Below are positions 10,131 through 24,238 of a DNA stretch of 37,479 nucleotides, in pieces. The notes under the pieces are model-generated. The model did not search any database. It worked only from the letters and a program-made list of their open reading frames with translations, and had not been told where the DNA came from. Origin of the DNA: a virus (taxonomy: Duplodnaviria > Caudoviricetes); the IMG/VR virus record IMGVR_UViG_3300047279_000033, positions 1-37,479 of that record; one strand, written 5' to 3'. The translations under genes were made by a program, and so were the position numbers. The stretch's first letter is position 1; each line of letters opens with the position of its first letter.

Positions 10131-10583
10131 TCAACGTAACGCTAGCGCGGGAAACTGCGCGTACATCTCTTTGCGGATGTCCAACGCTTTTTCAAACGTA
10201 GATGCCCGCCGGCGATAGCGCACACCATAGACTACCATCTCTACCCGAAAGCCTTCAGCGTCTTGCCAAATGTTGCGTGTGTCGCGGTTGCGGGTCGCGT
10301 AGTCAATGTTCTGGCATATGGTAGCTAGACGCAGGTTGCTTATGCGGTTGTCTGTTTTGTCGCCGTTTATATGATCTATGGTCATGCCTTCTGGCGGGTG
10401 CGTTCCGTAAACCCATAACCACACCAACCTGTGTACGCGGTACTCACGCCCGCGCACGCTCGTCCGTAAATATCCTTTTTGCGATAGACTGCCGGTAGGG
10501 CGCCCATCGCGCCGGCGGCACTCACCGGTTTCAGGATCAATAAAAAATATTTTTTTGAGTTCGGTTTGCGAGAGAAGTTTCAT
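10131..10583 (-). CDS. HNH homing endonuclease (HNH_3 type)
   Basis: YRVHRLVW...IDHINGDKTDNRISNLR; start set at MKLLSQ; lower GC than neighbours. Confidence 0.9.
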   Translation of the reverse strand: MKLLSQTELKKIFFIDPETGECRRRDGRPTGSLSQKGYLRTSVRGREYRVHRLVWLWVYGTHPPEGMTIDHINGDKTDNRISNLRLATICQNIDYATRNRDTRNIWQDAEGFRVEMVVYGVRYRRRASTFEKALDIRKEMYAQFPALALR

Positions 10584-10589
10584 GTTTGA

Positions 10590-10618
10590 CGAATACCACA
10601 GTGGGTGGGGGCCGGCAA
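10590..10618 (-). promoter_or_regulatory. Promoter for the HNH gene (probably leaderless)
   Basis: TTGCCG-17 nt-TATTCG-6 nt-ATG with a TG extended -10. Confidence 0.45.
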
Positions 10619-10754
10619 CAAAAATCAAAAAATAATTTTGTTTACGGGAGGTGCCCGTGACAGTCACCCGCGCGCCGGCCCCTGGGGGCGGGGGTGCACG
10701 CGCGGGCAGACGCGCACAGGCAGGCGCGCACGCGCAAGCGCGGGGCCATTTGCC

Positions 10755-11215
10755 CGGCTGGGCAATCTGGGCGGAGAAAAACCAACCGGCTGGCGCGCCA
10801 GCTTGCGCGGCCATTTTGCTGTTAGGCGGTTTAGGTTTTGTTTTTTGGTTGGCACATCACGGGCGCGATTGCGTGACAATGTGACAATAGGGGGTGCCAG
10901 GCTCAAAACTAGGCGTTTCTGGGTAATCGCGTGACAATCCGATTAAGCCCGCAATGCCAAGGGGTTAAGCCAGAAAAGACTAATTTTTAGGCTATTTAGG
11001 CGAGGTGTGGGGTTGCGCCAGAAACGGCGTGGTGCACAGCGCGCCAGCGTCACAGCGTATTAGCTATATAATACACTTATTTTTTTTTTAAATTGATAAC
11101 ATCAACACTACCTAAATAGCCTAACTCCCTCCCAGCCCCTTGGATTCCCACGCAAAAAGCCTTGGCGGTTTTTCGTTTCCAATAGCCTAAACAGCCGCCT
11201 AACGTGACAATCCAT
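10755..11215. other. Putative replication origin / divergent control region
   Basis: Non-coding; 14-bp inverted repeat at 10987-11000/11111-11124 around an AT core (11058-11100); four GTGACAAT copies. Confidence 0.5.
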
Positions 11216-14838: not shown

Positions 14839-15960
14839 ATGCAACACAGTAGGATCGTCGGCGGATCGACCGCCAAGCGCGTCATCGCCTGCCCTGGCAG
14901 CGTGGCGCTGGTGGACAAGATGCCACCCAGCCCAAGCAGCAGCTACGCCAACGAAGGGACGCTTCTGCACGACACCATCGCGGACGTGCTGGACAAGAAC
15001 AAGCCGCCAGAAGCCTATCTGGGGCGAACCCATGCGGGCATCAGGCTGGACGACGACCTGATCGCACGCAAGCTGCGCCCGGCGCTGGACGCGCTGGATG
15101 AGATCGATCCCGAGGGAAGGATGGAATATGCTGTCGAAAGCCGGGTGGGGTTTGGCGATTATCTACCTGACGTTTTTGGTAGTACTGATTTTCTGGGCCG
15201 CCTTGGCAATCGCGCTGTTGTGCTGGATTGGAAGTTCGGCGATGGAATTCCTGTCGGCGCTGAAGAAAACGCCCAACTGATGTTCTACGCCGCCGCCGCC
15301 ATGCGGACGCCGACAACGCAGTGGGTGTTCGAGGGCGTCGAGGAGGTCGAACTGATCATCGTACAGCCGCCCAGCGTCAAGCGGTGGGTGACGACGGTGG
15401 AGCGCATCAAGGCGTTCGAGGCTGACCTGAAGGCGGCTGTGACGCGGGCGCTGAAGCCCGACGCACCGCTGGCCGCTGGTGACCATTGCAAGTGGTGCCC
15501 CGCCAAGCCTGTGTGCCCTGTCATGACCGGCGCTGTGGATCGCCTGCTGGCGACCAAGCTGGACGCCCTGCCGGTGGATCAGATCGCGCATTATCTGGAT
15601 CAGGTGCCGCTGGTGGAGGATTTCATCTCTGGCTTGCAGGCGCTGGCCTTGCAGATGCTGACCGAGGGCAAGCCGGTGGGCGACTGGAAGCTGGTGCCGA
15701 AGCGCGCCACCCGCCAGTGGGCCGATGAGGACAAGGCTGTGGCCTTCCTGTCGAGCGTGGGCATCGAAGCATGGGCCGAACCGAAGGCCATCACGCCAGC
15801 GGTGGCAGACAAGGCGCTGAAGAAAATGAAAATCGAATTGCCGGCTGACCTGGTGGTCGCCGTCTCCACGGGTAATACTCTGGCGCCGGGGAATGACCCC
15901 CGGCCCGCGGTGTTGCAAATCGGCCACACGCTCAAGAAGGCGATGGCCAAAATCCAGTAA
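14839..15960 (+). CDS. Cas4-like PD-(D/E)XK nuclease (DUF2800 family)
   Basis: N-terminal CPGS, GTLLH, D...DWKFG, QLMFYA and CKWCPAKPVC Fe-S cysteines; precedes SSB and polymerase. Confidence 0.88.
   Translation: MQHSRIVGGSTAKRVIACPGSVALVDKMPPSPSSSYANEGTLLHDTIADVLDKNKPPEAYLGRTHAGIRLDDDLIARKLRPALDALDEIDPEGRMEYAVESRVGFGDYLPDVFGSTDFLGRLGNRAVVLDWKFGDGIPVGAEENAQLMFYAAAAMRTPTTQWVFEGVEEVELIIVQPPSVKRWVTTVERIKAFEADLKAAVTRALKPDAPLAAGDHCKWCPAKPVCPVMTGAVDRLLATKLDALPVDQIAHYLDQVPLVEDFISGLQALALQMLTEGKPVGDWKLVPKRATRQWADEDKAVAFLSSVGIEAWAEPKAITPAVADKALKKMKIELPADLVVAVSTGNTLAPGNDPRPAVLQIGHTLKKAMAKIQ
15128..15280 (+). CDS. Candidate overprinted 50-aa membrane protein (+1 frame in the DUF2800 gene)
   Basis: MLSKAGWGLAIIYLTFLVVLIFWAALAIALLCWIGSSAMEFLSALKKTPN; AAGGA 6 nt upstream; local shift in host codon third positions. 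Confidence 0.6.
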   Translation: MLSKAGWGLAIIYLTFLVVLIFWAALAIALLCWIGSSAMEFLSALKKTPN

Positions 15961-15974
15961 GGAAAGGTACGACA

Positions 15975-16619
15975 ATGAACGAAGTTACCAAGTTTGGCGG
16001 CGCTGGTCTGCCGTCTGTTAAGTCTCTGGCGTCCGCGCTGCGCTCCATCGAATCGTCGGGCGGCGCTGGCGGTATGGCCATCCTCAAAATGGACAAGACC
16101 GGCCACTGGGTGTTCGGCGCCGATCAGACCGAGGTCGAGGATGACAGCCTGTGGGCGGTCAACCCTTTCAGCTTCGTCCACGGCTACATCGCTTGGGGCG
16201 ACGGTGAAGTGCTGGCCGAAAAGATGGTCAGCGTTTCTGAGCCGTTGCCGGAACTCGACCCCGCGCCGCCTGCATCTGACAAGGGCTGGGAAATGCAGAT
16301 CGGCATGACGCTGGCCTGCACGAACGGCGAGGATGAGGGCCTGCAAGTCCGCTACAGCGCGACCAGCGTCGGCGGCAAGCGCGCCGTGCAGGCACTGGCC
16401 GTGGATATCGCCGAACAGGTGGACAAAGACCAGTCGAAGCCGGTGCCGGTGGTGCTTCTGAAGAAGGAACACTATCAGCATAAAAAGTATGGCCGCATCT
16501 ACACGCCGGTGTTTGACATCGTGAAGTGGTCGGGCATGGACGCAGCCCCGGCGGAGGAAGACGCTGCGGAAGCGGAAGCCCCGGCTGAAGACGCACCGCG
16601 CCGCCGGCGCCGCGCGTAA
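15975..16619 (+). CDS. Putative single-stranded DNA-binding protein
   Basis: 214 aa between nuclease and polymerase; YQHKKYGRIYTPVFDIVKW followed by an acidic flexible tail. Confidence 0.65.
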   Translation: MNEVTKFGGAGLPSVKSLASALRSIESSGGAGGMAILKMDKTGHWVFGADQTEVEDDSLWAVNPFSFVHGYIAWGDGEVLAEKMVSVSEPLPELDPAPPASDKGWEMQIGMTLACTNGEDEGLQVRYSATSVGGKRAVQALAVDIAEQVDKDQSKPVPVVLLKKEHYQHKKYGRIYTPVFDIVKWSGMDAAPAEEDAAEAEAPAEDAPRRRRRA

Positions 16620-16684: not shown

Positions 16685-18670
16685 ATGAGCATTTTGTGGG
16701 GCGACACGGAAACGCGCAGTGAGTGCAATCTGCCGGTGGCTGGCGCGTATAACTACGCCCAGCACCCTTCCACGCAGCTATTGCTGTTCAACTGGGCGTT
16801 TGACGATGAGGAAGTTGAAGAATGGTGGCCGTCTTGCGGGAGTCCTTTTCCAGAACGTGTCAAAGAACACATCCGCGCCGGCGGCCAGATGCGCTTTCAT
16901 AACGCCGGGTTTGATAGGCTCATATTTGAGTTTGTTGTTTGCCCTGATTTTGATGTGCCAACGCCGGCGCTAGAACAATGGTACTGCACCGCCGCTCAGG
17001 CCCGCGCCAACTGCGCGCCGGGTAGTCTGGAAGATGTGGGCCGGTTTGTAGGCGCCAGCATGAAGAAGGATCATAGGGGCAAGCAGTTGATCCGGCAGAT
17101 TTGCATCCCGCCGTTTAACAATGACCCCGCGCTGTTTGGTGAGTTTAGGATGTACGGCGCGCAGGACGTGCGCGCTATGCGGGCCATCGCCCAGGCGCAG
17201 CGCGCGCTGTCCGCTGATGAGTTGCTTGACTACCACACCAACGAACGGATCAACGACCGCGGTGTGCTGCTGGATCGCCCGCTGGCGCTGGCCGCCGTGG
17301 GCTACGCCGACGCGGAGTCCGCCGACATCCAGCAGACGGTCGAGGAGGCCACCGGTGGCGAGATCACGTCCGTCCGCAGCCCCAAGATGCGGGCGTGGGT
17401 TCTGGATCGCGTCGGGCCGCAGGCGCTCAAACTGGCGACGGTTTACAAGGACGGCGAACCCAAGCTATCCATCGACAAGAACGTCCGCTTCAATCTGCTG
17501 GCGCTGGCCGAGGAGAACCCCGATGAAGTACCGGCCATCGTCGCTGAAGTTATCCAATGCGCGGATGACCTCTGGGCATCGTCAGTTGCAAAGTTTGCGC
17601 GGGCGGCTGCGCTTGCAGATGATGAGGATCAACGAGTTAGAGGCGCGTTCGTATTCGCTGGAGGTAGTGCTACAGGCCGCGCTTCATCATTTGGACTTCA
17701 AGTTCATAATTTCCCACGACGATGCGCCGACGACCCTGCACTAACACGGCAGGCGATGGTGCGCGGCCACCGGATCGTGCCGAAGTTTGGCCCACGGATC
17801 ACCGACGTGCTGAAAGGAATGCTGCGCCCGGCGCTGATGGCCCCTGAAGGCAAGCGGCTGGTGGTGGCCGATTGGGCCGCCATTGAGGCGCGGGTGACGC
17901 CGTGGGCGTCGAACACTAACAGCGGCGCAGAGAAGCTGGGCATCTTCGCGCGCGGCGAGGACGTGTACAAGCACAACGCCGCGGCGACCTTTCACGTCCA
18001 TTACGATGACGTGGACAAAGACAAGCGCCAGATCGGCAAGGTGCAGGAGTTGGCCTGCGGCTTCGCCGGCGGTGTGGGTGCCTTCGCCAGCATGGGCCGC
18101 ATCTACAACGTGATCATGACCGAGAGCGACAGCCGCAAGATGGTGGACGGCTGGCGACGGGCGAACCCGTGGTCGGTCAACTACTGGACGGGGCTGGAGC
18201 GGGCGTACACCGGCGCCATGCGTCACCCAGGCAAGGAGATCAGCGCCGGGCGCGTGACCTATTTGTTCGACAAGCAGCATCTTTGGTATGCCCTGCCGTC
18301 AGGCCGTGTGCTATGCTACCCGTTCGCCCGCTTTGATGAGGAAGGCAACATCACCTACGCCAAAGCGGCGTGGAAGCCCGCCGCCGACGCAAAGGAATGG
18401 CCCCGCGCCCGCCTGTGGCGCGGTCTGGCCTGCGAAAACATCACACAGGCCATCGCCAACGATCTGCTGCGGCACGCGCTGCGGCGGTTGGAGGAAGAAG
18501 GGTTTGACGTAGTGCTGCACGTCCACGACGAAATCGTGCTGGAGACAGACGCCAGCACCGCCGAGGACGCCGCCGCCGCGCTGGTAAAGATCATGTGTAC
18601 ACCGCCGCTCTGGGCCGCTGGCCTGCCGCTGAACGCGGAAGTGGCTATCATGACCCGTTACGGGAAATAG
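16685..18670 (+). CDS. Family A DNA polymerase with 3'-5' exonuclease
   Basis: ExoI DTET, ExoII HNAGFD, ExoIII YGAQD, ATGRAS, motif A DWAAIEAR, motif B RQIGKVQELACGF, motif C HVHDE. Confidence 0.95.
   Translation: MSILWGDTETRSECNLPVAGAYNYAQHPSTQLLLFNWAFDDEEVEEWWPSCGSPFPERVKEHIRAGGQMRFHNAGFDRLIFEFVVCPDFDVPTPALEQWYCTAAQARANCAPGSLEDVGRFVGASMKKDHRGKQLIRQICIPPFNNDPALFGEFRMYGAQDVRAMRAIAQAQRALSADELLDYHTNERINDRGVLLDRPLALAAVGYADAESADIQQTVEEATGGEITSVRSPKMRAWVLDRVGPQALKLATVYKDGEPKLSIDKNVRFNLLALAEENPDEVPAIVAEVIQCADDLWASSVAKFARAAALADDEDQRVRGAFVFAGGSATGRASSFGLQVHNFPRRCADDPALTRQAMVRGHRIVPKFGPRITDVLKGMLRPALMAPEGKRLVVADWAAIEARVTPWASNTNSGAEKLGIFARGEDVYKHNAAATFHVHYDDVDKDKRQIGKVQELACGFAGGVGAFASMGRIYNVIMTESDSRKMVDGWRRANPWSVNYWTGLERAYTGAMRHPGKEISAGRVTYLFDKQHLWYALPSGRVLCYPFARFDEEGNITYAKAAWKPAADAKEWPRARLWRGLACENITQAIANDLLRHALRRLEEEGFDVVLHVHDEIVLETDASTAEDAAAALVKIMCTPPLWAAGLPLNAEVAIMTRYGK
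17523..17744 (+). CDS. Candidate overprinted 73-aa coiled-coil protein (+1 frame in the polymerase gene)
   Basis: GAGGAG 7 nt before ATG; MKYRPSS...LQSLRGRLRLQMMRINELEARSYSLEVVLQAAL...; the polymerase codon anomaly spans this interval. Confidence 0.65.
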   Translation: MKYRPSSLKLSNARMTSGHRQLQSLRGRLRLQMMRINELEARSYSLEVVLQAALHHLDFKFIISHDDAPTTLH

Positions 18671-18681
18671 GGAGAACCGCG

Positions 18682-21054
18682 ATGAGTGAGGATCGCATCA
18701 AATTTATCGAATACGTCAGCAAGCTGGCGTTCGAGACGGGCGAGACGGCGCTGTTGCTGAAGCAAAAGCCGACGCTGGTGAACGGCGAGATGATCTACCA
18801 CGGCGATGGGGTGCCGAAGGCGACCTTCCCGTCGTTCCTGCCGGCCAAGGCCAACATCAAGCCGGGCGACGCATGGTACGTCAACACAGGGGCGTTCATC
18901 GTTGACCGCTTCGTGGACGGCAAGCCATCGGCCAAGTCCGAGAACGTCGAGTATGTCCTGTTCATGATGCTGGACGACATTGGCACCAAGTCCAAGGAGC
19001 CGCCGCTGGCCCCGACGTGGGTCATGGAGACGTCCGAAGGGTCGTTTCAGTGGGGCTACGCCTTCAACGAGCAGCCGTCCAAGGCAGACTTCGCCGCGGC
19101 CATCACCGCCATCGCTGACGCGGGCTACACTGACCCAGGAGCAACCAACGCCGTCCGCAACTGCCGCATCCCCGGGAGCGTCAACCTGAAGCGGGGGCGC
19201 AACAACTTCGAGGCGCGGCTGGTCGAGTTCCACCCAGACCGCGAGTACACGCTGGATGACGTGTGTCAGGCGCTGGGCGTTGTGCCGCCCGAATCGGACA
19301 CCGCCGAGATCAGAAGCATCAAGATACGCGACACCGGCCAAGACAACGTGCTGGCGTGGCTGTCGGACAACAGCATGGTGCTGTCGCGAGTCAACAACGA
19401 GGGCTGGTGCGGCGTCGTCTGCCCTAACCATGCCGCGCACTCGGACGGCAGCATTGAGGGCCGCTACAAGCCGCTGGATCGCTCCTACTGCTGCTATCAC
19501 GGCCACTGCCAGCATCTGACCAGCACGACGTTCTTGCAGTGGGTGTCGGAGAACGGCGGGCCGACCGTGACGCCAGGGCTGCGGGACGAACTGATCGCCG
19601 AACGGATGCGGCTGATGGCTGAGAAAATCTCGCCGACCGAAGCGTTCCCGGATCAGGCTGCTATCACCGTCAGGGAAGTCGAGCGCAAGGAAGCCGGGCG
19701 GCTGACCAAGACCGAGTGGTTCGACCGGTTCGCCTACGTGCAGTCCGACGACAGCTACTTCGACATGGTGACGCGCCAGGAAGTGCCGCGCCATGTCTTC
19801 AACGCGCTGTTCCGCCACGTCGATTGCCGGTCGATCCACAACAACAAACGGCAAGTGGCTGCGTCGGTCTACTACGACGAGCGCCGGCAGGAGTTTGGCG
19901 CCAAGGCGTTGACCGGCATCACCTACGCCGCGGGCGAGGACGTGTTGGTGGCGCGTGACGGGATGGTCTACGGCAACCGCTGGGTCAACGCCCGCCCCGA
20001 CATGAGCGCCACGCTGTCAGTCAGTGACGCACAGATCACGCCGTGGCTGGATCACTGCCGCAGTCTGATTGAGGAGCCGTCCGAGCTCGATCATATTCTG
20101 AACGTAATGGCCTATAAAGTTCAGAATCCGAACATCAAGATCAACCACGCGGTGCTGCATGGCGGTGACGAAGGCAGCGGCAAGGACACCATGTGGGCGC
20201 CGTTCCTGTGGGCCATCGGCGGCAAGCACCAGCACAACCGGTCGATCATCGAGACGGGCGAGATCAACAGCCAGTGGGGATACAACCTGGAGGCTGAAGT
20301 CCTGATCCTGAACGAACTGCGCGAACCAGAGGCGAAGGAGCGCCGGGCGCTGGCCAACAAGCTCAAGCCGATCATTGCCGCACCGCCGGAGACGCTGTCG
20401 ATTAACCGCAAGGGTCTGCACCCCTACGAGATGCTGAACCGGGTTCAGGTGGTGGCGTTTACGAACGACCCGCTGCCGATTACGCTGCCGACGCAGGATC
20501 GCCGCTGGTTCTGCGTGTGGTCACGCGCACCGCGGATGACCAAGCCAGAGGCCGACGCGCTGTGGGATTGGTACAAGGCCGGCGGCTACGAGAAGATCGC
20601 GGCATGGCTGCATCTGCGCGATGTGTCAGCGTTCGGCGCTGCTGCTGCGCCACCGGTGACCGAGTGGAAGCTGAACATGGTCGAGCAGGGCATGAGTGTA
20701 GCCGAGAGCTACCTTGTGGACATGATGCGCCTGCGCGTCGGGCCGTTCTCGCTGGGCGTCATCGGCGGGCCGTTCCACAAGTTGTGCGACTTCTTGGTCG
20801 CCGACAGCAAGGTTCCGGCGGGCGTGAAGGTGCCGCAGGCGGCGCTGCTGCACGCGCTGAAGGAAGCCGGCTGGCTGGACTGCGGGCGGCTGGCGTCGTC
20901 TGACTTCACCACCAAGCGACATATCTTCGCAGCACCGGAGGTTGCGCGGGCGCATTCGAAATCTGACCTTCGCCGGATGGTGGAAAACATTGATACTCCC
21001 CCCGGTAAGGTGATAGACATCGGTCAACGGCGCAACCCAAACCAGCGCGGTTGA
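18682..21054 (+). CDS. Primase-SF3 helicase fusion
   Basis: RepB-like primase motifs (MLDD, ETSEGSFQWGY, RIPG), Zn-binding CPNHAAH...CYHGHC, Walker A GDEGSGKD, LILNE, FTN; GGGAG RBS before MSEDR. Confidence 0.88.
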   Translation: MSEDRIKFIEYVSKLAFETGETALLLKQKPTLVNGEMIYHGDGVPKATFPSFLPAKANIKPGDAWYVNTGAFIVDRFVDGKPSAKSENVEYVLFMMLDDIGTKSKEPPLAPTWVMETSEGSFQWGYAFNEQPSKADFAAAITAIADAGYTDPGATNAVRNCRIPGSVNLKRGRNNFEARLVEFHPDREYTLDDVCQALGVVPPESDTAEIRSIKIRDTGQDNVLAWLSDNSMVLSRVNNEGWCGVVCPNHAAHSDGSIEGRYKPLDRSYCCYHGHCQHLTSTTFLQWVSENGGPTVTPGLRDELIAERMRLMAEKISPTEAFPDQAAITVREVERKEAGRLTKTEWFDRFAYVQSDDSYFDMVTRQEVPRHVFNALFRHVDCRSIHNNKRQVAASVYYDERRQEFGAKALTGITYAAGEDVLVARDGMVYGNRWVNARPDMSATLSVSDAQITPWLDHCRSLIEEPSELDHILNVMAYKVQNPNIKINHAVLHGGDEGSGKDTMWAPFLWAIGGKHQHNRSIIETGEINSQWGYNLEAEVLILNELREPEAKERRALANKLKPIIAAPPETLSINRKGLHPYEMLNRVQVVAFTNDPLPITLPTQDRRWFCVWSRAPRMTKPEADALWDWYKAGGYEKIAAWLHLRDVSAFGAAAAPPVTEWKLNMVEQGMSVAESYLVDMMRLRVGPFSLGVIGGPFHKLCDFLVADSKVPAGVKVPQAALLHALKEAGWLDCGRLASSDFTTKRHIFAAPEVARAHSKSDLRRMVENIDTPPGKVIDIGQRRNPNQRG

Positions 21055-22712: not shown

Positions 22713-22872
22713 CCAACCTATTTCAGCCGCTCAAGCGGCAAGAGAGATATGGGCCATGTTTGAAAAAATAGCTGATGAAGAAGGGCTAAACGGGGAAGAA
22801 CGCGCAAAGGTTCTAGACCGGTTTTCCGCTGCGGCGTTTTACGAACCCACGTTTAAAGGAACTGAAGAATGA
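22705..22872 (+). CDS. 55-aa hypothetical protein (not in ORF track)
   Basis: GTG after GGAGGAG; MSNQPISAAQAAREIWAMFEKIA...; ATGA-coupled to the next gene; AT-richer. Confidence 0.6.
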   Translation: MSNQPISAAQAAREIWAMFEKIADEEGLNGEERAKVLDRFSAAAFYEPTFKGTEE

Positions 22873-23060
22873 ACAAGGTTGATTGGCGGTCGCTGGCCGC
22901 CACGCTCACGTCCATGTCGGAGGCCGAGGTCAAGCGCCTGCTGGACGACGAGATGGCAACGCGCCGCCGCATCGGGATCGTGCGCCGCCTGCACCAGCGG
23001 TACGCCATGCTGCGTAACGCGCGGGAGCGCGCCGAACTGATGGGGAGGCTGGGCGCATGA
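22869..23060 (+). CDS. Small basic hypothetical protein
   Basis: 63 aa; coupled at both ends. Confidence 0.7.
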   Translation: MNKVDWRSLAATLTSMSEAEVKRLLDDEMATRRRIGIVRRLHQRYAMLRNARERAELMGRLGA

Positions 23061-23419
23061 ATAGCGAATGGGATAAAAAACTACAAAAAGGGGCTTGCGA
23101 ACACGGTGAGTGGCGCGGTCCCGGCGCGTATTGCGGCATTTGCTGGGTAAATGACGCAAACAATGACGCCGTTGACCCAAAGTCTGCCAAGCCAGACGCA
23201 GTCAATCCCGACCACTACAAGGTCGGCGGCATCGAGACGATTGACTACCTCCAGGCCAAGCTATCGCCAGAGGAGTTCGCCGGCTACTGCCGCGGGAACG
23301 CGCTGAAGTACATGAGCCGCGCGGGGCATAAGGACGCCACGGTGTTAGAGATCGGCAAGGCTATCTGGTATTTGCAGTGCTGGCGGGACAGTCTGATCTG
23401 CGTGGACGCGCCGGATTAA
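23057..23419 (+). CDS. DUF3310 family protein (T7 gp1.7-like)
   Basis: DAVNPDHYKVGGIETIDY...GNALKYMSRAGHK...KAIWYL. Confidence 0.85.
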   Translation: MNSEWDKKLQKGACEHGEWRGPGAYCGICWVNDANNDAVDPKSAKPDAVNPDHYKVGGIETIDYLQAKLSPEEFAGYCRGNALKYMSRAGHKDATVLEIGKAIWYLQCWRDSLICVDAPD

Positions 23420-23994
23420 GGTTTAAGACCGCTATTGAAAGCGGATATGCGCTTAACGTGGGCCAGAAAGTCACTAACAGCCATTCCTCGCTTCATCATG
23501 TTGCAAGGGGCACAGCAGGAAACCGTGTTGTCTGGGGTATAACCTTGTTCGTTATCTACGCGGTCGACGCCATTGTAACGAAACACCTCATCGCTGTAGC
23601 GGTGCCCCCAAGAATTACTAGGCAATGACCCACAATAATGGCAGTTGCTTGTAATCATTTCAAACCACTGGTCTATTGTAAGATCAAATGCGCGCCCCAT
23701 TCTTTTAGCGTTTTTCTTATAATGGTGCATCGTGTTGTTTTGGACGACTTCCCGTAATGGCTTACGAAAAGTTTTAGAAGCTATCTGCGCTTTATAATGA
23801 CCGCATGATTGCACTTTTGTATTGCGTAGTGTTGTTGAAAGAATAGGTTTCACTATACCGCATGAACACCGACACAACCATTGCAGCTTACTTTTGCCGC
23901 ATGGTAGTTTGTAATAGCCGTGGAATCCGAGAACTGTCAGCTCTCCAAATGTTTTGCCTGTAATGTCTTTGGCTCTTGAAGGAACTTGTTTCAT
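23416..23994 (-). CDS. His-Me finger (HNH-like) homing endonuclease
   Basis: DITGKTFGELTV...WLCRCSCG N-terminal domain; CHYCG...GVDRVDNEQGYTPDNTVSCCAPCN; markedly AT-rich. Confidence 0.85.
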   Translation of the reverse strand: MKQVPSRAKDITGKTFGELTVLGFHGYYKLPCGKSKLQWLCRCSCGIVKPILSTTLRNTKVQSCGHYKAQIASKTFRKPLREVVQNNTMHHYKKNAKRMGRAFDLTIDQWFEMITSNCHYCGSLPSNSWGHRYSDEVFRYNGVDRVDNEQGYTPDNTVSCCAPCNMMKRGMAVSDFLAHVKRISAFNSGLKP

Positions 23995-24001
23995 TTAAGA
24001 C

Positions 24002-24238
24002 TTATAGCTGACTTTTGCTTTTTGGGCAATCATCATTGCAGACACATTCATAAACTGAGTTGTGGGCTTCGATCTCTTTCACCGTCTCAGCGGTGTCGGT
24101 CTTGCTGTCGTAGCTGATCTGCTTGGCGATGCGGCAGTAGTCACCGACGAGCGCGGTCGAACCTGTCACGCAGCCGGTCAAGACGAGCGGGATCGTCAGC
24201 GTCCATAGCGACTTCAGCCTTGGCAACATTTGCATCAA
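24002..24238 (-). CDS. o-spanin (Rz1-like lipoprotein)
   Basis: Signal peptide with lipobox LTG-C; overlaps the 3' half of the i-spanin in another frame; exact start Met uncertain. Confidence 0.8.
   Translation of the reverse strand: MMQMLPRLKSLWTLTIPLVLTGCVTGSTALVGDYCRIAKQISYDSKTDTAETVKEIEAHNSVYECVCNDDCPKSKSQL

Follow-up and report, generated by a model that had tools for sequence, protein, structure and literature searches.

The phage genome and its replication block

The window, by which we mean the whole stretch of DNA analysed here (37,479 nucleotides; IMG/VR record IMGVR_UViG_3300047279_000033), is a whole virus genome of 37,479 bases with an estimated completeness of 100%. Portal, terminase, capsid, head-closure, endolysin and Rz-like genes are recognised in it by PHROG/Pfam-type searches. 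The Rz-like gene lies at 24002-24238, and the presence of this spanin gene suggests a Gram-negative host; matches in genome bins are spread over several phyla, and the runs containing the window's DNA are mostly freshwater metagenomes. The replication block comprises a DUF2800 nuclease gene (14839-15960), a 214-aa gene (15975-16619), the gene of a family A DNA polymerase (PolA) of 661 aa (16685-18670, plus strand; phrog_17, E 1e-92; PF00476), a primase gene (18682-21054), and then a nuclease and a helicase gene. The PF00476 (DNA_pol_A) match covers polymerase residues 211-454, and the overlap described below (codons 280-353) lies inside it.

Elsewhere in the window, a 63-aa gene after the helicase (22869-23060) is present in 29 of the 29 records compared and has no PHROG or Pfam match, and two HNH/endonuclease genes are located on the minus strand (10131-10814 and 23416-23994), the second in a low-GC stretch (0.44). 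In the polymerase itself, a leucine stands four residues from the motif B lysine (K452-L456, 18038-18052), which suggests, with some uncertainty as the HMM alignment is gapped at motif B, a PolA of the Leu762 type as described in PMC6302109.

A +1 frame nested in the polymerase gene

The +1 frame of the polymerase gene contains an ORF of 73 aa, from ATG to TAA, at 17523-17744 on the plus strand. It is preceded by an SD-like GAGGAG (17510-17515), 7 nt upstream of the ATG and formed by polymerase codons E276 E277. The codons GAT GAA (D280 E281, 17522-17527) create the ATG together with an A-rich second codon, and the L353 codon with the next base (17741-17744) makes the +1 stop. All these coordinates were proposed in an earlier note on the window and all of them hold. 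The counts of A/T-ending polymerase codons given there are also reproduced, that is, 46 of 74 inside the ORF against 11 of the next 75, and the corresponding values are 8 of the 75 codons before the ORF and 121 of the 588 other polymerase codons. The rare codons named there are present as well, namely CGA (317, 345, 346), AGA (319), TCA (300, 334, 335) and CTA (353).

When synonymous codons are resampled from the gene's own usage (20,000 draws), the number of A/T-ending codons averages 16.5 and reaches at most 31, against the 46 observed. The best two-breakpoint fit of the A/T patch in the window is codons 280-354, that is, the ORF's own ends. One tail gene in the window reaches 51 of 74 A/T-ending codons, but it is A/T-rich throughout (0.45). 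The chance of an ATG, an open frame and a stop at these places is 0.079 in the single window sequence, and therefore the case depends on the relatives. The +1 frame is also open upstream of the ATG, to 17121, and one sister lineage appears to start at a second ATG, located at 17619/17622. Neither a sigma-70 promoter nor an Rfam match is found near the nested ORF.

Conservation among related polymerase genes

The first set of relatives consists of 80 related loci and the window, and in 62 of these 81 sequences the ATG, the open frame and the stop lie at identical codons. With two further scans of viral sequences and one of genomes, the set grows to 192 aligned genes, leaving out L081 (the window's own copy) and the partial L097. 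With the further removal of L098 (carrying an intein), L191 (on the same contig as L031), L064 (with an 11-codon deletion) and duplicates, 172 genes are retained. A tree built without codons 270-400 places the window in a clade of 72 distinct genes. In 70 of them the +1 frame starts at codon 280 or next to it and stays open until a stop at codon 353; this count, like the others here, comes from related sequences and so overstates the number of independent events.

The two ends of the ORF are well kept. The stop codon is TAG in 54, TGA in 10 and TAA in 6 of the 70 genes, and CTG or TTG is used at codon 353 of the clade only where an A follows (10 of 10); thus the stop is kept as a function and not as a sequence. 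All 55 distinct ORF-bearing genes of the first set use GAT for D280 and GAA for E281, codons with frequencies of 29% and 40% elsewhere, and the fixed ATG-making start is found in 69 of the 70 clade genes. An SD-like word (GGAG, GAGG or AGGA) stands upstream in 69 of 76 short-form genes compared with 42 of 1000 other +1 ATGs, though it is partly forced by the two glutamate codons, as GAGGAG or GAGGAA occurs in 6 of 15 ORF-less genes.

Inside the ORF, the rare pair GTT AGA (V318 R319, 17636-17641, plus strand) is the clearest case of a fixed codon choice. R319 is AGA in 55 of 55 ORF-bearing genes against 1.4% elsewhere, and V318 is GTT in 54 of 55. The pair gives L39 and E40 and avoids a +1 TGA, and by the genetic code AGA is the only arginine codon giving both of these residues in the +1 frame. 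These columns show 0 changes on the tree, where 11-12 are expected. On the whole, 6 of the 61 columns scored in the overlap are invariant against 0.25 expected (tree of 69 genes; 0 of 10,000 draws as high). Of the columns with Leu, Val or Ile before A, all 8 outside the overlap show +1 stops, in 62-100% of sequences, whereas the two inside it show them in 0 of 55 and 0 of 54. The clade-mean A/T content of third positions peaks at codons 310-338.

The reduced synonymous variability that was predicted for this interval is seen at these few invariant columns but not overall, where synonymous change in the overlap adds up to 569, with 620 expected (ratio 0.92, P=0.095). Pairwise synonymous diversity is not lowered (0.35-0.41 inside the overlap, 0.29-0.49 along the gene), and a BLOSUM test is flat, with +1-frame changes no more conservative. 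Among the sequences compared, the openness of the +1 frame alone is weak evidence, since the polymerase sequence yields it cheaply: between codons 312 and 352 none of the 15 ORF-less genes has a +1 stop, and at V289 only 3 of the 15 do. A profile of the +1 frame also matches ORF-less genes, with E down to 1e-16, so conservation of the +1 protein is in large part a shadow of the polymerase. The dual coding proposed in the earlier note is supported by the start, the stop and the specific rare codons, which are kept across relatives. From these comparisons of sequence, the nested +1 frame is very probably a real gene, unannotated in the window.

Length forms, loss and gain

The wider family starts the +1 frame at the same place, with product lengths from 73 to 230 aa, a series whose direction of change is unrooted. 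The 172 genes include 76 short forms (73-75 aa), 34 intermediate forms (87-148 aa), of which 27 have the A/T patch and the 7 without it are doubtful, and 25 long forms (218-230 aa). A further 22 genes, mostly from A/T-rich genomes and with weaker evidence, have an ATG only near codon 312; 21 of these 22 have stops in the N-terminal half, and 21 of 22 have an SD-like word. The remaining 15 genes have no ATG and are the ORF-less genes referred to above. In L134 (3941-4180) and related loci, +1 stops at codons 307/310 are followed by an SD-like word and an ATG at codon 312, and this arrangement suggests a relocation of the start.

The long forms, found in L113 (3785-4474) and 24 other loci, have two hydrophobic helices with a basic tail at their C-terminal end, and their most hydrophobic 19-mer has a median of 2.16. 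At eight stop-prone columns in codons 372-476 they carry +1 stops in 0 of 18-25 sequences; at four of those columns short forms carry +1 stops in 35 of 74 to 69 of 70. For L113 the chance of such openness is 1e-4. Polymerase-synonymous change is raised 1.43-fold in the long forms (a short tree, length 1.64, 24 genes) and is high at codons 316-345 (1.7-1.9-fold), and the raised change fits either fast evolution of a second protein or recombination.

The segment also differs in its history from the rest of the gene. The ORF-less L008 and the ORF-bearing L010 have an identity of 0.85-0.92 outside codons 280-359 and of 0.67-0.75 inside, while L008 and the ORF-less L077 have 0.83-0.90 over codons 280-339, with first and second positions in agreement. 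L148 shows the reverse pattern against L036, and L112 is unclear. Because of the identity switches in L008 and L148, we infer that recombination has removed or brought in the segment as a unit in two lineages or more. The copy in the window is most similar to those of its own clade (0.97 to L173 and L002) and is thus no foreign patch; the low-GC recombined segment with boundaries unrelated to the ORF, which the earlier note had considered, is absent here, the ends of the patch being the ends of the ORF. No gene cluster present in at least 3 records tracks the loss of the ORF among 29 records analysed with a home-made gene caller, a comparison of low power because only 2 of the 7 ORF-less records are near complete.

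Intein homing at codon 333 may add to this mosaicism. L098 carries at 213-989 a 259-aa intein (Cys start, HN end; Hint_2 match) at the polymerase TGRA^SS site after codon 333, a site which is empty in the window (17681-17686, plus strand). The intein cuts the nested +1 ORF of L098 short, and contains a 181-aa out-of-frame ORF at 433-975 with an HNH-like motif read by eye. An out-of-frame HNH homing element was considered for the nested ORF and rejected: the HNH-like ORF of L098 sits in an insertion, whereas the window ORF lies on conserved polymerase sequence with no insertion compared with its relatives and has neither a nuclease match nor a PHROG match.

The predicted protein

AlphaFold models the short form as one helix, with block pLDDT 86-98 over residues 21-60 and pTM 0.46, and the long form as a helix at 25-53 with a hairpin at 165-224, at low overall confidence (mean 51). 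The helical core that appears to be under selection comprises ORF residues 32-59 (17616-17699, plus strand), including I36, L39, E40, E47, L50 and L54, and is free of proline; over residues 32-62 there are 0.0 prolines per 18-mer, against 2.3-3.1 in ORF-less genes. Hydrophobic residues occur at 32, 36, 39, 50, 54 and 57. A clean heptad and membrane binding by the short form are unsupported, because the hydropathy periodicity has its peak at 85 degrees instead of 100 and residues 32-62 have a low hydrophobic moment (0.15-0.24). Of the basic coiled coil proposed earlier, the helix is thus supported by the model and by the exclusion of proline, while the basic character is largely forced, ORF-less genes giving a basic +1 frame too.

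The product has no significant family in PHROG, Pfam or NCBIfam and no significant PDB match; Foldseek against viral structures gives 0 matches for the single-helix model, and in the ESM Atlas the best match of the short form (0.88) is unnamed and the long form gives nothing usable. Profile searches retrieve 93 distinct proteins, with forms outside 40-128 aa covered by one profile search only. Of these, 90 match +1 frames of polymerases, which means that the nested ORF has at times been picked up by gene callers; the other 3 are long proteins matched through short repeated stretches, and no standalone homologue is found among the 93. In 32 of 32 records there is one match per record, and it lies within the polymerase. 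Because the polymerase frame belongs to a universal family, the +1 frame is presumably the newcomer. In addition, four RNA-library runs contain related contigs, in three of them with listed pieces that span most of the ORF, though contigs cannot show transcription or frame.

Known protein families were also tried and rejected. For SlyX (PF04102), 0 of 51 sequences match at E<=1, the PDB entry 3EFG has E 2.3, and hhalign gives a probability of 0.2% against one SlyX sequence. An Rz1-type o-spanin does not fit, as the alignment has no signal peptide with a lipobox and the phage has its separate Rz-like gene.

Possible functions of the nested gene

We tentatively regard the product as a dispensable helical accessory protein that would bind a host target during phage DNA replication. 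The gene would have arisen by overprinting on the polymerase gene, and ribosomes would start at the internal SD and ATG on the replication mRNA, so that the protein would be made alongside the polymerase. Residues of about 21-60 would form one long helix whose leucine stripe may pair with itself or with a partner helix, and the long forms are predicted to have a disordered linker and a membrane anchor of two helices as well, by which this same module would be kept at the inner membrane. By analogy, we guess that the target may be a host replication, division or defence protein. A broader reading, for which the balance falls just short of even, is that the ORF is an exchangeable de novo allele of freshwater podophages, present by lineage as a 73-aa soluble helix or a 230-aa membrane-anchored protein or absent, swapped by recombination via the conserved motifs of the polymerase, and acting as a fast-evolving factor in host takeover or in anchoring the replisome. 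If this is true, the allele series would be a natural record of how a single de novo gene was born, was extended, moved its start, was transferred and was lost.

The product might instead bind its own polymerase or replisome and position or tune it, with the long forms tethering replication to the membrane. The fixed linkage and co-expression with the polymerase, the membrane hairpin predicted in the 25 long forms, and the precedent of GndA (10.64898/2026.10.22.760973) speak for such a partner, which we consider unlikely, as polymerases 85-92% identical outside the segment are without the ORF, the polymerase is much less variable than the length and start of the ORF, and the short form's hydrophobic moment is low. 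The host-directed role is preferred to it because near-identical polymerases lack the ORF and because length and start are variable.

It is rather improbable that the protein is a small DNA-binding dimer, with a basic N-terminal half containing an RTxxGHR turn followed by a zipper, which regulates phage or host DNA. Its pI of 9.7-12 would fit, as would the derivation of H19 and R20 from non-default polymerase codons (GCA in 55/76 against 0/15, TCG in 74/76 against 4/15), but the basic residues are forced by acidic residues of the polymerase, and the sister lineage with its apparent start at codon 312 has stops in the N-terminal half (21/22). The matches to BldC (PDB E 0.8; NCBIfam E 0.09 in 2 of 51) are weak and not significant, and the ORF is too small for a helix-turn-helix; BldC/HTH_17 winged helix-turn-helix as a family was therefore rejected, with no match in Pfam and a model that is one helix.

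An explanation with no protein gene at all, in which the constraint acts on nucleic acid as an RNA or DNA element, or through recoding or co-conversion at the codon-333 intein homing site, appears quite improbable. The L098 intein with its out-of-frame HNH-like ORF at codon 333, the mosaic segment with the A/T peak at 310-338, and the high long-form synonymous change at 316-345 would all be consistent with it. However, it leaves unexplained the three interchangeable stop codons and the exclusion of proline, the ATG fixed 53 codons upstream of codon 333, and the avoidance of stops to codon 476 only in long forms; moreover, there is no Rfam match, and the start region folds weakly. Very improbable, in our judgement, is a role in cis, in which internal initiation alters expression of the polymerase or primase and the peptide matters little. 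The start and stop are indeed the best-kept features and overall synonymous change is near normal, but the helix is fixed residue by residue and the long forms encode a hydrophobic hairpin, which argues for selection on the protein. A programmed +1 frameshift yielding an exonuclease-thumb fragment with a helical tail is hardly credible, for though many genes have 44-183 open codons of this frame ahead of codon 319 and a few database calls join the polymerase to the +1 frame (P0087, P0091 and P0092, which are DNA-level calls), the ATG is fixed in 69/70, the variable codon 279 (CCA/CCT/CCC) means that there is no conserved slip site there, and in 21/22 genes of the lineage with stops at 307/310 the codon-312 ATG is preceded by an SD-like word.

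Comparison with known systems

Same-strand nested genes are known in phages, such as Rz1 in Rz of lambda, E in D of phiX174, and 4.1 and 4.2 in gene 4 of T7. Like these, the putative gene is a small shifted-frame gene with its own SD and start inside an older gene. It differs from them in that the gene containing it encodes the PolA catalytic domain and in that its length ranges from 73 to 230 aa between lineages; it also has no lipobox and no single N-terminal membrane helix. According to PMC8903798, +1 overlaps have a median of 14 nt with the shortest excluded, so that a nested overlap of 222 nt is long.

In E. coli, the altORF GndA in gnd likewise encodes an out-of-frame helical microprotein overlapping functional residues of an enzyme, and it recruits Gnd to the cell poles (10.64898/2026.10.22.760973). 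As described there, GndA is amphipathic, heat-controlled and demonstrated to relocate the protein whose gene contains it, while the product of the nested ORF has a low moment and is predicted only. Small phage inhibitors of host replication, namely N4 gp8, 77 gp104, Twort gp168 and G1 gp240, offer a functional analogy only (small, accessory, and made by phages whose DNA is replicated in a commandeered host); the nested ORF has no sequence match to them, and they are not described as overprinted in the accessible part of PMC3594737. In the literature search, which covers subscription papers thinly, we found no description of a nested gene in the core of a phage PolA.

If the gene is real, normal annotation would overlook it although most of the members sampled from a common freshwater phage family have it; the number of stored stretches that match the polymerase patterns is estimated at about 1,400. 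An essential replicase could then encode a second protein in one of its conserved parts, and the length series together with the cassette swaps would make de novo gene birth testable by single-base changes. For polA as a phage marker gene, it would mean that mosaicism and selection on a second frame can both affect it here.

Other features of the polymerase gene

A second +1 ORF at 16719-16973 was rejected, being open in only 14 of 74 short-form genes. A second, smaller rise of T at third positions is seen at 18260-18330 (codons 526-549), where synonymous change is low (0.69); no conserved open frame is seen there, and the rise is common to ORF-bearing and ORF-less genes. The part encoding the N-terminal region of the polymerase is also A/T-richer at third positions (16685-17300, with 16790-16960 inside it) and is close only to L001 (0.94-0.98; others about 0.8), so the polymerase gene of the window appears to be itself mosaic there.
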